A stretch of DNA of 64,000 nucleotides. It comes from Candidatus Ryanbacteria bacterium CG10_big_fil_rev_8_21_14_0_10_43_42. Its GTDB lineage: Bacteria; Patescibacteriota; Minisyncoccia; Ryanbacterales; 2-02-FULL-48-12. The stretch lies in assembly GCA_002793915.1 (NCBI GenBank), contig PFEF01000005.1, forward strand, positions 83,108 through 147,107, given 5' to 3'. The first letter of the stretch is position 1. Each line of letters starts with the position of its first letter. The position numbers are program-made. This document shows positions 33,701 to 48,700 of this stretch, piece by piece.

Positions 33701-36700
33701 TGGCTTTGAAAACACGTTTTCTGATTCTCCTCACAAAAATCGGCATTCACAATGCCGGCGGTATGAATAATCCAATCAGGCGCGTGTTCTTTCTCGGCGA
33801 GTACGGCATCTCGATTAGTAACATCAAGAGCCGCATGATCCAGTGCTCGTACGGCATAATCCTTGCCCGCAAGAATATCGACGAAAGCTGATCCGAGCAT
33901 ACCGCTCGCTCCCGTAATAAGCACATTTTTAGGGGAATTCATACTATAATCCTATGGGAAAAAGCACTATATGTCCATGTAATTCAGTAGTATGACGTAT
34001 GCGTTTTTAGTAACCAGAGCTCTTGTATTTTATAGAATATATTGTACAATTTCTTCGAGCGATTTTTAGTAATAACCTTTAACAAAGGAGGTGAGTGGTG
34101 GTACGCCACAGAACTTAATCCAGAGCTTGGAAAACCCAAAACCGCATGACACGCATTGGTTCTCTGAATGTCCGTCCAATATGGTTGATATTCAAAAGGA
34201 CTATGCGCCGTACATTAATGAGGCGATCAGAACATCGGGACTCTAAGAAAGGAAAGACGGGATGTCATACAATGATCAGCCGGCAGTAACGGAACTCACG
34301 TCAGAGGAGCTTCAAACCTATTTGGCTCTTCAGAAAAAAGTAGGATGGCAACGTACCGGAACAGAAGTGTTTGAGTCATTTTTCGGAATTTTGCCAATGG
34401 TACCATTCGAATGTGCCGTTGTTCGTTATATTGACGGCGAACCTTGTGTTCTCTTGTGGCATAGGGACGATGAACACTACACGGGATGGCATATGCCGGG
34501 GAAATATCTCTTGCGGGGCGAGACGGACGAAGAGGGTGTAAGGCGTGTTCTCAAAAATGAAGCAGATTTGGAGCTTACTTCTTTTGAATTTATACGTCAC
34601 TTCAATACGCGCCCCGAGTCTGGAGACGTGCCCCAGCATCAACAAGCGCTTTTCTGGCTTTGCAGGGCAGAGGGTGAGCCGACCGTTGGAAGGTTCTTTC
34701 CGCTTACGAAACTGCCGGAGGATATTCTCGGGCATCATCGGCGGTATGTTGATCATTTGCGTGCGTATTTGATGAGAGACGAGCGCTTGAAGTCAGATCA
34801 TTTTTTCCGCGACCATGATTTTAAGGCACATGAAGGAAAATGGTTTGTGGCAGTGGATCGTTTCGCTGGTGAATCAAAGGAGTGGTACGTAGATTCATCA
34901 GAATACGATACACTAGATGCGGCAATAGAAAAGTATAAGTCAAACAGAGAATACTCTTCTATTTTTGATGACCTTGGTCACCAAATCTGCTAGTTGACGT
35001 GATTTTTTTACTCTAGTCGAATACTCAAACGGAACCTCGGTTCCGTTTTTTTATTACGGCACACAAACGTGTATATACGTTCTTGTATAATATTCTTGCC
35101 GTCTTTGATATTTTTGCGTATAATGCGTTCGACAAATGTTTCATAAGAGGAGGCTGTAATGGAGCAATATGCTATTTTCTGGATAGCAAATGGATTTGAT
35201 CCGGGTAATGGAACAACAACTGATTCTTTCTCTCGTATTGCATTGAATCGTGCTTCAGATAGGTTTAAGAATCTGCAAAGCGATGATAATGTGGTGAAAT
35301 TTGTTATTGTGCGTTCCATAGTAATGTCAGGCGAAGGGACAATTTTATGGAATGTACTTGAAGCAGAAGCAAAGGAATACGCTGACATTCCTGAAGAAAG
35401 TATTGTTGTTACCGAAACAGAAACAACGGGTTCCACCACAGATGGTCTTGCTATTACCAAGTATGCATCAGAACACCCCGACACGTTCATTGAAGTGTTT
35501 ACCGCGTCTCCACAATTTCGGGATTATGTCGATGTTATGTATCGCGCTGTAGCACGATGGGTTGAGGGAAGACGAAGTAATTTACCCATGAAGGTATTTA
35601 GTGCAGTCACGATTCCCCATTGGAAGAGCCGGTTGTTGTATCGGGTACTTTGGGGCATTACGGCGTGCGTATCAAAGAGCGGATTTCTCTTTATTATATG
35701 GTACAATTTGTTAAATACTATCTACAAAAGGCGCCTTACGCATTTCGAGAGAACAATTTCATGACGCAATATAACGGTTGAAAGACCGTTATTTTTATTG
35801 TAGAGTAACTCCCATGCAAGACGGCTATTGGGCGAGGAAGAATGTGTTTATAACCGGCGCCGCCGGCTTTTTGGGTTCGTGGCTCACGAAGTTTTTGGTG
35901 GATGCGGGTGCTGATGTGACCGTTCTTTTGCGGGATGTTGTGCCGGGCTCTAATCTCTATCGGAATGGATATGTTCATAAAGTGAATATTGTGCGTGGGC
36001 AACTGGAAGATTACTTTGTTTTGGAGCGGGCTTTGGGAGAATATGATATTGATACTGTTTTTCATCTGGGTGCACAAACACAAGTGGGTATTGCGAATCG
36101 GAATCCGTTATCCACATTCGAATCAAACATTAAAGGAACATGGAATGTACTGGAAGCGGCGCGTCGAAGTCCTTTAGTAAAAAAAGTGATCGTGGCGTCA
36201 TCCGATAAGGCATATGGCATCCATAAAGAACTTCCCTATACGGAAGAAGCGCCTTTAAAAGGATCGCATCCGTATGATGTTTCAAAAAGTGCGGCGGATC
36301 TTATTGCGCGCACATATTACGAATCATACGGATTACCGGTTGTCATTACCCGGTGTGGTAATTTTTATGGCGGCGGGGATACTAATTTTAACCGCCTTAT
36401 TCCGCAGACAATTCGTCATATCTTAAATAACGAATCCCCTATAATTCGATCCGACGGCACATTCATTCGCGATTATTTCTATATTGAAGACGGCGCGCAC
36501 GCGTACATAGAACTTGCCGAGAAAATGGACGATGAGCGCATTCATGGACATGCTTTTAACTTTAGCAACGAATCCCAAATGACGGCACTGCAAGTGGTGG
36601 AACGTATTGCGTCCCTCATGCAAACTCCGCTTAAGCCAACCATATTGGGAGAAGCAAGCAATGAAATTCCGCATCAGTATCTTTCAGCGGCAAAAGCACG

Positions 36701-45700: not shown

Positions 45701-48700
45701 CTGGTGCGGGATGCGGAGGACGTAATTCCATTTTCGGGTCCGTATGTAGTCAAAGCACAGGTTCTTTTTGGAAGCCGAAAAGACGCCGGCGGTATTCTTT
45801 TTGCTTCTACGGCAAGCGCGGCAAAAGAACATGTGCGTACGCTTTTGGGAAAAAACCTCCAGGGAGAATATGTTGCTAGTGTGTTGATAGAAGAAAAAGT
45901 TCAATCGCCGATTGAATATTATACCTCCTTTAGTTATGATACTGTTACGCGTGGACCCATTCTTATGCTTTCTTTGCGAGGCGGATCTCACTTAACGGAG
46001 ACCGTTACATTTCCTGTTGATCCTACCTTATCAAAAGATTCAATCATACTTTTTTTAAAGAAGGCACTCTTCCGAAGCGGCTTTTCTTCTTTGGATATTG
46101 CTCCATTGACCGTCTTTATTTCGCGTCTCTGGGAATTATTTGTTAATGAGCACGCCCTCTTGGTTGAAATTAATCCTATTTTAAAAATATCTTCAAATCA
46201 ATTTGTTGCAGGAGATGCAAAAATAATATTAGATAATGAAAAGGTAAAACCGAATGAGCGACCTTTTTATAATTTAAAGGGAGATATAGCCATATTGGCG
46301 TCCGGCGGAGGTGCGTCACTTCTTAATATAGATACCCTCATGGCATACGGTGGTAAGCCGGCAAATTATACCGAGTATTCAGGAAATCCTCCTGCTGACA
46401 TAGTTCGGGACCTTACTGTCCGTGTTCTTTCACAAAAAAACTTAAAAGGATGTTGGGTGGTCGGCGGTACGGCAAATTTTACGGATATATATGAAACCAT
46501 GCGCGGCTTTTTAGATGGTTTGCGTTGTATTAAACCGCAACCGCAATACCCTATCGTAATTAGGCGCGACGGTCCGCGATTTAACGAAGCGGCAGCGATG
46601 TTGCGTGCGGCTGCGAAAGAAAATAAGTACAATCTTCATATTTTTGGAAGTGAAACGCCTATGTCTGAATCTGCCAATATTATGGTTGATTTGGCATATA
46701 AAAAGTAAATATGGCTATTCTAGTTACAGAAAAAACGAAAGTGCTTATCCAGGGGATTACGGGGAAAGAAGGATTAAAGGCGCTGGAAGGTATGCGTAAT
46801 TACGGTACGGATGTTCTTGCCGGCGTTACTCCCGGAAAAGGGGGTGGGTATATTAGTAATGTGCCCGTGTATAATACGGTGCGCGAGGCGATGCAAGATC
46901 ACCCGTCTATTAACGCAACATTATTGGTAATGCCAGCTCTGGCAGTGAAAGCCGCCGCATACGAAGCAATTCAGGAAAAAATACCGCTACTGAATATATT
47001 AACGGAACATGTTTCCGTCCGTGATACTGCGCTAATTATAGCGCAAGCCAGAAAAGATGGTGTGAACGTAATTGGTCCGTCTTCAGTTGGCATCATATCT
47101 CCGGGTATTGGTAAAATGGGAAGTATTGGCGGAGAAAATCCTGGGCGTATGTTCCGGCCGGGACCTGTTGGTATAATTTCAAAAAGCGGCGGTATGACTT
47201 CTGAAATTGCCATTACCTTAAATAGGTCTGGACTTGGCCAGAGCACAGTGCTTGGCATTGGCGGAGATCAATTAATTGGATTTGACTTTATAGATGCGAT
47301 GAAATTGTTCGAGAAGGATGAGAAAACGCATGCAATAGTAATTTTTGGAGAAGTTGGCGGTACGTATGAGGAGCAGCTTGCAGAATTTATACAAAAAGAA
47401 AGATTTAAAAAACCCATTATAGCTATTATAGCGGGAAGATTTACTTCCGCATTTCCTTCTGGTACCGTATTTGGTCACGCGGGGACTATTGTTATGCGTA
47501 ATCGTGGAGGATATGAATCAAAAGTGAGCGCCCTTCAAAAAGCAGGTGTTATGGTAGTAAATACCTTGGAGGAAATACCGTTATTGCTCAAAAAAAAGTT
47601 CTATGAGAGGATGGGATAATGAAATGGAGAACGGCAATTAGCACACAAAAAGACAAGGAATTATACGTACGCGGATCACGTCTTACGGATCTTATTAAGA
47701 AAGCAAGTTTTATCGAATCTATTTTTCTTATATTACGCGGGCAATTTCCGAAAAAAAAAGAAGCAAAAATACTGGAAGCTGTTTTTGTCTCTATGATTGA
47801 ACATGGCGTTGAGGTTCCATCTGCTTTTATTGCGCGGAGTGTTGCCTCAACAGGAAATTCACCACATACTGCGTTAGCCGCTGGTATTCTCGCAATGGGA
47901 GATTTTCATGGCGGCGCAATAGAACAAGCGGCTCGATATATTCAATCAAAAGAGACGCCGCGCGCTGTCGTTACTCAGGCACTTAAAAATAAAGAGCGCT
48001 TGCCGGGTTATGGCCATAAAGTGTATAAGGCGGGGGATCCGCGAGTCCGTGCTCTTTTAGAAAAGACGCAAGAGTTGCAATTATCCCAAACATACATAAA
48101 GCGCGCTCGTGCGATAGAGCGTGAGTTAAAGCGTGCGAGCGGCATTAGCGTACCTTTGAATATTGACGGAGCGGTTGCTGCCGTCATATCAGAACTTGGG
48201 TTTGATTGGCAGTTAGGAAAATCTTTTTTTGTTTTGGGCCGCCTGCCCGGGCTTATTGCGCACGTTGCGGAAGAACAAAAAAATGAAAAACCATATCGTC
48301 GCCTCGATTCCGATGATATTGAATATATCGGCCCGCCTTTTTAATCTCATTCTTACCGACCCTCTCTCGACAAAAGAACGGCAATTGTCTTAAGCGCAAT
48401 TGTCAGGTCCAACACAAGAGATCTATTTTTTATGTAATAAAGATCGTATTGCATCTTTTGAGGAGCATCTTCCACAGAAGCATCGTTTTCCATATTTACC
48501 TGTGCCCAACCGGTAATGCCGGGGGTTACTAAGAGACGCATGTCATAAAAGGGGATTTTTTCACGAAGCTCGGCTACATAATGTGGACGCTCTGGACGAG
48601 GACCGATAAGCGACATATCACCCTTGAGAACATTCCATATTTGGGGAAGTTCGTCCAGATAAAACATACGAAGAAATGTACCGAATGGATATACGCGCGG

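Follow-up and report, generated by a model that had tools for sequence, protein, structure and literature searches.

The closest described relative of the locus studied here is the erwiniose cluster of Pectobacterium atrosepticum SCRI1043, in which Steitz et al. (2022) recognised ErwE, a YerE-like enzyme dependent on thiamine diphosphate (ThDP), ErwF, a reductase, ErwJ, an acetaldehyde dehydrogenase, and ErwI, a BphI-like pyruvate aldolase; these genes adjoin those for CDP-4-keto-3,6-dideoxyglucose, and the authors extended the scheme to caryophyllose and gastriose (PMC9306805). In vitro, ErwE couples 4-hydroxy-2-oxopentanoate to a ketone acceptor, selecting the 4R enantiomer and rejecting pyruvate (PMC9306805). 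We analysed a 64-kb stretch of DNA, hereafter the window (contig PFEF01000005.1, positions 83,108 to 147,107), from Candidatus Ryanbacteria bacterium CG10_big_fil_rev_8_21_14_0_10_43_42, a groundwater bacterium with a tiny genome and a member of the Patescibacteria or Candidate Phyla Radiation (CPR). An operon at 35814-48344 of the window carries predicted counterparts of these four enzymes beside putative CDP-4-keto-3,6-dideoxyglucose genes, together with three genes for a predicted citrate-cleaving system. We propose, with a probability of about 0.6, that this operon makes an erwiniose-type sugar and that the citrate-cleaving trio is placed there to feed acetyl-CoA to its DmpF-like step.

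The original prediction for this stretch held that DmpFG pairs play no part in known dideoxy-sugar pathways and that the biosynthesis of erwiniose and caryophyllose was unknown. Both statements are outdated, as ErwJ and ErwI are a BphJ/BphI-like pair and the Erw pathway was described in 2022 (PMC9306805). The DmpF/DmpG/ThDP/short-chain dehydrogenase/reductase (SDR) block is probably an already known, erw-type module; what is new here is the predicted citrate-cleaving addition, the CPR host, the predicted polyprenyl-phosphate delivery and a 3-dehydratase for which the scanned window ORFs offer no E3 partner.

A second comparison is offered by YerE/YerF of the yersiniose A pathway in Yersinia pseudotuberculosis, where CDP-4-keto-3,6-dideoxyglucose likewise undergoes ThDP-dependent branching at C4 and then ketoreduction. 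YerE uses pyruvate, which gives a C2 branch, and needs no aldolase-dehydrogenase pair, whereas in the window the translational coupling between the ThDP gene and a DmpFG-type pair predicts a C4 branch. A 2025 review puts the number of YerE-like clusters recognised in silico at more than 200 (PMC12247030), and the structure of one YerE-like enzyme, JanthE, is available (8RPH; PMC12188165).

The aldolase and dehydrogenase themselves resemble DmpFG, BphIJ and HsaFG (1NVM, 4JN6, 4LRS, 8IH7) in their two-protein architecture, DmpG communication domain, catalytic motifs and equivalog-level scores. In contrast to these catabolic pairs, their direction is predicted to be biosynthetic, and their context consists of sugar-nucleotide rather than ring-cleavage genes. 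The trio, in turn, resembles CcsAB and Ccl of Hydrogenobacter thermophilus (6HXQ, 6HXP) in being made of three separate polypeptides with a matching domain make-up and a GHAG motif. This two-enzyme citrate cleavage system of Hydrogenobacter, citryl-CoA synthetase (CCS) and citryl-CoA lyase (CCL), was reportedly described by Aoshima in 2004. In Aquificae, CCS/CCL serves the reductive tricarboxylic acid (TCA) cycle for CO2 fixation, whereas the window trio lies in a glycan operon.

Operon layout and the erw-like module

A listing of open reading frames (ORFs), combined with Pfam and NCBIfam scans, resolves the operon into 12 co-directional genes on the + strand rather than the thirteen counted originally in a list that itself held 12 names; all domain calls made at that time were borne out. 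The genes of the operon, preceded by the separate rfbF, are the following (GT2, glycosyltransferase family 2):

31080-31862, +, RfbF, glucose-1-phosphate cytidylyltransferase, which makes CDP-glucose (TIGR02623, 295 bits, cut-off 300)
35814-36785, +, RfbG-like NDP-glucose 4,6-dehydratase, first gene of the operon (best NCBIfam match TIGR02622, 203 bits)
36800-37765, +, extended SDR of the epimerase/reductase/dehydratase family (PF01370/PF16363)
37767-38726, +, GT2a, GtrB/ArnC/PgfS-like (full-length PgfS model match 222 bits, ArnC 145 bits)
38753-39952, +, RfbH/E1-like sugar 3-dehydratase (best PDB matches 3BCX/3BB8)
39945-40886, +, GT2b, GtrB/PgfS-like (PgfS model match 207 bits)
41066-41947, +, DmpF/BphJ-type (ErwJ-like) acylating acetaldehyde dehydrogenase (TIGR03215, 375 bits, above cut-off)
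41938-42948, +, DmpG/BphI-type (ErwI-like) class II pyruvate aldolase (TIGR03217, 358 bits, above cut-off)
42945-44738, +, YerE/ErwE-like ThDP-dependent carboligase (best PDB match JanthE 8RPH)
44744-45622, +, ErwF/YerF-like SDR, predicted branch-ketone reductase (PF01370)
45632-46708, +, SucC-like, CcsA-like citryl-CoA synthetase large subunit (PF08442, ATP-grasp_2, and PF16114, Citrate_bind)
46711-47619, +, SucD-like, CcsB-like citryl-CoA synthetase small subunit (NF004230, 282 bits, cut-off 336)
47619-48344, +, citryl-CoA lyase with a citrate-synthase fold, 241 aa (NF004869, 272 bits, above cut-off)

The junctions also agree with what had been claimed: the DmpF/DmpG, DmpG/ThDP and SucD-like/lyase pairs overlap by 10, 4 and 1 nt, and the single gap of about 180 nt measures 179 nt (40887-41065). 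The RfbH-like and GT2b genes overlap by 8 nt, and the remaining gaps range from 1 to 26 nt. The GC content (0.36) of the kilobase that holds the 179-nt gap is the lowest in the region. We saw no terminator-like hairpin in the gap, and scans of promoter and terminator consensus, which performed no better than on shuffled sequence, cannot decide whether it splits the operon. Such a hairpin does precede the RfbG-like gene, at 35771-35792, and since the TTG at 35778 with which the mechanical ORF begins lies within it, the ATG at 35814 is the likelier start.

The overlaps had been put forward as evidence of linkage. We rejected spacing and co-directionality as coupling evidence, since about 50 of the 58 window ORFs lie on the + strand and tight co-directional packing is the rule throughout the window. 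The evidence for a functional unit is cross-genome conservation and not spacing.

Gene content, order, motifs and conservation across genomes were read directly, and for the individual pathway steps we relied on the ErwJIEF precedent and on knowledge of the enzyme families. RfbF would provide CDP-glucose, which the RfbG-like and RfbH-like dehydratases would convert into CDP-4-keto-3,6-dideoxyglucose. The DmpF-like enzyme would form acetaldehyde from acetyl-CoA and NADH and pass it to the DmpG-like aldolase, which would join it to pyruvate to give (4R)-4-hydroxy-2-oxopentanoate. The YerE/ErwE-like ThDP enzyme would then decarboxylate this acid and attach the resulting four-carbon acyl unit to the keto sugar at C4, and the SDR encoded downstream (44744-45622) would reduce the branch ketone. 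By analogy with Erw, the product is most likely a CDP-activated 3,6-dideoxyhexose with a 4-C-(1,3-dihydroxybutyl) branch. A GtrB-like GT2 would load the sugar on polyprenyl phosphate and a PMT_2-type GT-C transferase would attach it outside the membrane, while the trio would convert citrate, ATP and CoA into oxaloacetate and acetyl-CoA, the latter for the DmpF-like step.

Conversion of acetyl-CoA to acetaldehyde, aldol addition to pyruvate, ThDP-dependent branching and reduction would all be shared with the Erw pathway. The gene order is J-I-E-F in the window versus E-F-J-I in Pectobacterium, as judged from the consecutive accessions WP_011093010 to WP_011093013. It had been proposed earlier that the ThDP enzyme branches CDP-4-keto-3,6-dideoxyglucose and that the aldolase makes a 4-hydroxy-2-oxo acid for a longer, erwiniose-type branch; both proposals agree with the Erw precedent (PMC9306805).

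The match to JanthE extends over residues 1-593 of the window ThDP enzyme and reaches 379 bits, compared with about 243 bits for acetohydroxyacid synthase (AHAS) structures in the PDB. The protein also stays far below the cut-offs of all AHAS equivalog models and keeps the GDG motif. Catalytic motifs are intact in the module proteins, including the catalytic Cys of the DmpF-like protein (NMVTCGGQA). The ErwF/YerF-like SDR gene starts 5 nt after the ThDP gene, a position kept in four loci from other genomes (L009, L081, L165, L167).

Conservation across genomes is seen for the DmpF-DmpG-ThDP triad. We considered the retrieved loci, the window excluded, whose ThDP enzyme is at least 44% identical to that of the window and which have enough upstream DNA. 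In all nine distinct loci of this kind, the triad is contiguous, on one strand and beside cytidylyltransferase, 4,6-dehydratase and DegT/RfbH genes: L001 (Clostridia), L003 (Endomicrobiellum, cut within DmpG), L009 (Magasanikbacteria), L016 (Roizmanbacteria), L081/82 (near-identical, counted once), L165, L166, L168 (Pseudomonadota) and L169 (Lachnospiraceae). The DmpFG and ThDP part of the block recurs beside rfbFGH-type genes, whereas its join to the trio is found in one clade only. The erwiniose-type pathway, formerly tied to the O-antigen of a plant pathogen, would accordingly be widespread, in Clostridia, Lachnospiraceae, Endomicrobia, Pseudomonadota and several CPR lineages.

The ThDP and SucC-like proteins of the window are 100% identical to proteins of Candidatus Ryanbacteria bacterium CG10_big_fil_rev_8_21_14_0_10_43 encoded on a 524-kb contig. 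ThDP homologs at about 60% identity are very numerous and spread across phyla. The profile search of contigs with the ThDP alignment uses peptide patterns that also match ordinary AHAS, and about nine of the 80 loci listed in it are YerE-like in an rfb-type sugar context; no Pectobacterium locus is among these 80. A tblastn search of the ThDP enzyme against plasmids returned only ilvB-type AHAS at about 30% identity.

One might instead take the ThDP enzyme for a plain YerE that leads from pyruvate to yersiniose, and DmpFG for an unrelated catabolic or fermentative cassette, given that YerE is the founding member of this ThDP enzyme subclass (PMC12247030) and that DmpFG pairs are best known from aromatic catabolism. 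We regard this as very improbable. The triad is contiguous, its genes overlap by 10 and 4 nt, and it is kept beside sugar-nucleotide genes in the nine loci across phyla; moreover, ErwE, which has equivalent neighbours, rejects pyruvate. ThDP relatives that occur with rfbF/G/H and no DmpFG do exist (L005, L010, L014, L017), but they are more distant, at 34-44% identity, and fit, as would be expected, YerE-type enzymes or users of another aldolase.

The aldolases speak against a catabolic cassette as well, and they provide an independent, sequence-level argument for the partnership with the ThDP enzyme. In PDB alignments the window aldolase has Phe at the positions of both Leu87 and Tyr290 of BphI, the residues that enforce 4S specificity. 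The first position is occupied by Phe or Tyr and the second by Phe in all 11 sugar-linked aldolases, each of which also retains the catalytic RDGxH and HxH motifs, whereas the four solved catabolic aldolases (DmpG 1NVM, HsaF 4JN6, 4LRS and 8IH7) have Leu and Tyr there. Prior work on BphI has shown that Y290F abolishes 4S stereocontrol and that the L87W/Y290F variant is specific for the 4R acid (PMC3962088). The combination of Phe/Tyr87 and Phe290 is predicted to be a 4R-selective signature resembling this engineered variant. Since the signature predicts the 4R acid and ErwE wants the 4R acid, the sugar-linked aldolases would act in biosynthesis alongside the ThDP enzyme. The pairing of an aromatic residue at BphI position 87 with Phe at 290 may serve as a marker that separates biosynthetic, probably 4R-selective, aldolases from catabolic DmpG-type ones, and natural 4R aldolases would be useful to biocatalysis.

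In the Lachnospiraceae bacterium ZAX-1 (L169, 10001-14760), the triad is followed by a GNAT acetyltransferase and two aminotransferases, with no reductase. From this gene set one would expect the C4-branched sugar to occur there in an amino or acetamido form.

The predicted citrate-cleaving trio and its genomic neighbours

The best PDB match of the SucC-like protein is 6HXQ_B, the Hydrogenobacter citryl-CoA synthetase large subunit, at 145 bits versus 110 for the best SucC, and its score against the SucC equivalog is 150 bits (cut-off 370). The SucD-like protein has CoA_binding and Ligase_CoA domains and the GHAG phosphohistidine motif, and at 282 bits it stays below the NF004230 cut-off of 336 expected of a true SucD. 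The lyase finds its best PDB match in the Hydrogenobacter citryl-CoA lyase 6HXP_A over residues 3-240 (E 4e-70). ATP-citrate lyase chains match the trio more weakly than the Hydrogenobacter proteins. Judged by these matches, the trio is a Hydrogenobacter-type citryl-CoA synthetase CcsAB plus citryl-CoA lyase. A fused ATP-citrate lyase (AclAB/ACLY) was considered and rejected: because the SucD-like and lyase genes are separate, with a stop codon and a 1-nt overlap between them, the trio is of the CCS/CCL type. Homologs of CCS/CCL in CPR bacteria have already been flagged as mis-annotated in a preprint (10.1101/2022.10.25.513756).

Trios of this family are common in Patescibacteria, at about 55% identity. 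In 82 loci (L083, L084 and L085-L164), taken from a metagenome scan and two NCBI loci with a SucC-like gene, the trio lies apart from erw genes, and none of the 82 adjoins a DmpF, DmpG or ThDP gene. The trio is complete wherever the contig is long enough; upstream DNA exceeds 1.2 kb in 60 of these loci and 3 kb in 47. We clustered the neighbouring genes within 4 kb and checked family representatives with Pfam. Among the 47 loci with more than 3 kb upstream, 38 have a GlmU-like, GNAT or GlmS gene within 4 kb. The recurrent neighbours of the unlinked trios are:

GlmU-like nucleotidyltransferase/acetyltransferase, 29 loci
GNAT acetyltransferase, 25 loci
GlmS, 19 loci
CofD/YvcK-like protein, 16 loci

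A recurrent co-directional order is GlmU-like, GlmS, CofD, GNAT, SucC, SucD, CCL. The GlmU-like, GlmS and GNAT neighbours represent acetyl-CoA-consuming steps of UDP-GlcNAc-type synthesis, so that the usual partner of the trio is also an acetyl-CoA-dependent sugar pathway. This hints that CPR bacteria acetylate amino sugars with acetyl-CoA derived from citrate cleavage.

By contrast, a direct join of trio and erw module is seen in four distinct loci, with proteins that are 63-80% identical: the window, L081/82, L166 and L167. Two gene orders occur among them, and the outer flanks are all different. L081/82 keeps the window order and continues with a GT2b ortholog that overlaps the lyase gene by 4 nt, and L167 keeps it and continues with a giant RHS-type protein. 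In L166 the order is DmpF, DmpG, ThDP, SucC, SucD, CCL, SDR, so that the trio interrupts the module, and the ThDP and SucC genes overlap by 4 nt. The giant protein of L167 (5400-11667) is 2858 aa or longer, contains SpvB, TcdB, RHS and YD-shell domains and is unusually large for a CPR-type contig.

We then compared linked and unlinked trios at the 177 columns that are conserved at 90% or more in the unlinked ones; a single column differs in all erw-linked copies. There is no sequence sign of changed activity in the trio. A new substrate such as citramalate was considered and rejected, as 176 of the 177 columns are kept and the lyase is a full-length citryl-CoA lyase match. Since no new activity is apparent, the trio would supply substrate and not elaborate the sugar.

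For the same reasons we give very little credence to a new chain-extended sugar for which the SucCD-like and citrate-synthase-like enzymes perform new acyl-CoA chemistry on, or for, a C2-C5 branch unit. The trio does lie within the operon, in L166 even within the erw module, and its SucC-like and SucD-like proteins do not reach the NCBIfam cut-offs that define true succinyl-CoA synthetase. However, the lyase matches its Hydrogenobacter counterpart over the full length, the large subunit combines a citrate-binding domain with a best match to citryl-CoA synthetase, 1 of 177 conserved columns separates linked from unlinked trios, and DmpFG, the ThDP enzyme and the SDR already account for a complete known pathway.

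The trio is instead most likely a portable acetyl-CoA generator that was recruited to an erw-type pathway, as its sequence and neighbours suggest. To our knowledge, the CPR group to which the host belongs lacks a TCA cycle. The neighbours of the trio suggest that such TCA-less bacteria cleave citrate to obtain acetyl-CoA for their envelope, the citrate presumably coming from hosts or from the environment. We tentatively extend this idea, while thinking it somewhat less probable than its opposite, to a general role of the Patescibacteria trio as an envelope-sugar acetyl-CoA generator running on scavenged citrate. The trio would be wired to whichever sugar pathway consumes acetyl-CoA, mostly a UDP-GlcNAc-type one and here the erwiniose-type branch, and in the window citrate may supply the whole C4 branch. 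For the latter, more speculatively, the DmpG-like aldolase would decarboxylate oxaloacetate, an activity known from class II pyruvate aldolases (PMC5065237), and the resulting pyruvate enolate would attack acetaldehyde.

Findings that weigh against the proposal

Several observations count against our proposal, and they concern both the trio and the sugar genes. With regard to the trio, the next closest erw-like locus, L165 (72% ThDP identity), is without it, as are all the erw-like loci outside the linked clade (L001, L003, L009, L016, L165, L168, L169); hence the pathway needs no dedicated trio. Furthermore, in a neighbour-joining tree of the concatenated trio the linked copies group as one clade among unlinked ones from Patescibacteria, so that the join may have arisen once and been passed on in compact genomes without selection for it.

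These observations would suit a reading in which the sugar part is erwiniose-type but the trio is a housekeeping acetyl-CoA/citrate unit that came to its position by chance in one compact-genome lineage. The 82 loci in which the trio stands apart from erw genes, none of them beside DmpF, DmpG or ThDP genes, fit this reading too, as do the unchanged conserved sites of the linked clade and a window in which nearly all genes are co-directional and tightly packed anyway. We consider it unlikely, but it is an alternative to be taken seriously. What argues for recruitment is that the trio still adjoins the erw genes where SucC-like identity is down to 63-73% and both outer flanks are different, and that the internal order varies, with the trio between the ThDP and SDR genes in L166 (4-nt overlap) and between the SDR gene and the GT2b ortholog in L081. 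In addition, the first enzyme of the module uses acetyl-CoA and the trio is elsewhere again attached to acetyl-CoA-using sugar genes, which is a pattern and not a random placement. The original prediction had regarded standalone occurrence of the DmpFG, SucCD-like and citrate-synthase-like genes as speaking against a joint pathway. Such occurrence is what we found for the trio (82 loci apart from erw genes, usually in amino-sugar or housekeeping neighbourhoods), but not for the join, which is kept within its clade in two orders.

With regard to the sugar genes, the RfbF, RfbG-like and RfbH-like proteins each score below the NCBIfam equivalog cut-off, the RfbG-like protein reaching 203 of the 278 bits required by TIGR02622 (CDP-glucose 4,6-dehydratase). 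Orthology to ErwE/F/I/J and YerE is argued from the JanthE match and gene context and is to be read as probable. The route to the 3-deoxy keto sugar, as we infer it, is non-canonical because the RfbH-like protein is without iron-sulfur cysteines and the window holds no E3: among its ORFs of at least 90 aa we found none of the E3/AscD type (FNR/ferredoxin-type) in the 64 kb.

The RfbH-like protein is closer to E1 (structures 3BCX/3BB8, 231 bits) than to ColD (172 bits) in the PDB search. It has the active-site His, its SFYGSH aligning with SFYPAH at the residue that is His in 3BCX and Lys in 3BB8, which we take to be the position of E1 His220. Nevertheless, it is without all four iron-sulfur cysteines of E1 residues 251-261 (RSSSLFGEKKESEDIRKRF versus RDCYCAPGCDNTCKKRF). 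The enzyme may follow a ColD-like, E3-independent route to the CDP-3,6-dideoxy-4-keto sugar. The window differs from the Erw cluster in these respects, namely a 3-dehydratase without the E1 iron-sulfur motif and the missing E3, as well as in the attached trio.

The first SDR (36800-37765) has no equivalog-level match in NCBIfam; one possibility is that it acts, with the second GtrB-like GT2, in the synthesis of a second, unbranched dideoxyhexose. An Old Yellow Enzyme-family flavin oxidoreductase is encoded at 31859-32902 (- strand), between rfbF and an RmlD-like reductase gene at 33040-33942 (- strand). A link between this flavin enzyme and the E3-less deoxygenation step is conceivable.

Glycosyltransferases and the surrounding glycan island

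According to Pfam scans of the remaining ORFs, the window from about 0.5 to 54 kb is one large glycan island. It comprises three PMT_2-type GT-C transferases, several GT2 and GT4 glycosyltransferases, methyltransferases, a Wzx-like flippase, a sulfotransferase, Gmd, a fucose-synthase-like SDR, a carbamoyltransferase, RfbF, an initiating phosphoglycosyl transferase and two Wzy_C proteins, after which housekeeping genes (MurB, SecA) follow. A tRNA scan of the window found none. The features nearest to the operon are:

29710-31083, +, PMT_2-type GT-C glycosyltransferase (Pfam PF13231)
48353-49762, -, polyprenyl glycosylphosphotransferase, the initiating transferase, convergent with the operon end (TIGR03025, 325 bits, above cut-off)
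49857-54304, +, two tandem Wzy_C-domain membrane proteins of about 740 aa, O-antigen ligase/polymerase-like (PF04932)

The GT-C gene at 29710-31083 is likely, given its family, to encode an extracytoplasmic transferase that uses a polyprenyl-phosphate sugar. Its stop codon overlaps the start of rfbF as ATGA, and RfbF begins with MKVVILCGG at the ATG at 31080. GT2a and GT2b are 43% identical, both have hydrophobic C-terminal stretches, and both match the PgfS (222 and 207 bits) and ArnC models over the full length, below the equivalog cut-offs. Delivery in the window would probably rely on these GtrB-like polyprenyl-phosphate transferases and the GT-C, whereas a Leloir glycosyltransferase has been proposed for Pectobacterium. 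The host is a CPR bacterium and, unlike Pectobacterium, has no outer membrane. In such a cell, the branched sugar probably decorates surface glycans or proteins.

A GtrB-like GT2 related to GT2b adjoins the DmpF-DmpG-ThDP module in L001 (13899-14834), L003 (2908-3519) and L081 (8309-9256). In L081 it is the GT2b ortholog (64% identity), directly after the citryl-CoA lyase gene. As this GT2 recurs in Clostridia, Endomicrobia and L081, polyprenyl-phosphate delivery of the branched sugar may be common. L081 also has a homolog of the glycosylphosphotransferase, 61% identical, likewise convergent and one gene, the GT2b ortholog, downstream of the lyase. The tandem Wzy_C pair that follows this initiating transferase in the window forms the right end of the glycan island; one of the two proteins has a C-terminal TPR, and the pair is kept in L081 (10775-15257).

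Besides the PMT_2 gene at 29710-31083, two others lie at 1274-2752 and 23135-24484, and there are three GtrB-like or small GT2 genes, which suggests several Gtr-like extracytoplasmic glycosylation systems in the window. A carbamoyltransferase gene followed by one for an SxtJ-like small protein is found at 25257-27486, and a sulfotransferase gene adjoins that of a sulfatase-fold membrane protein at 15215-17710; the carbamoyltransferase and sulfotransferase genes point to carbamoylated and sulfated glycans.

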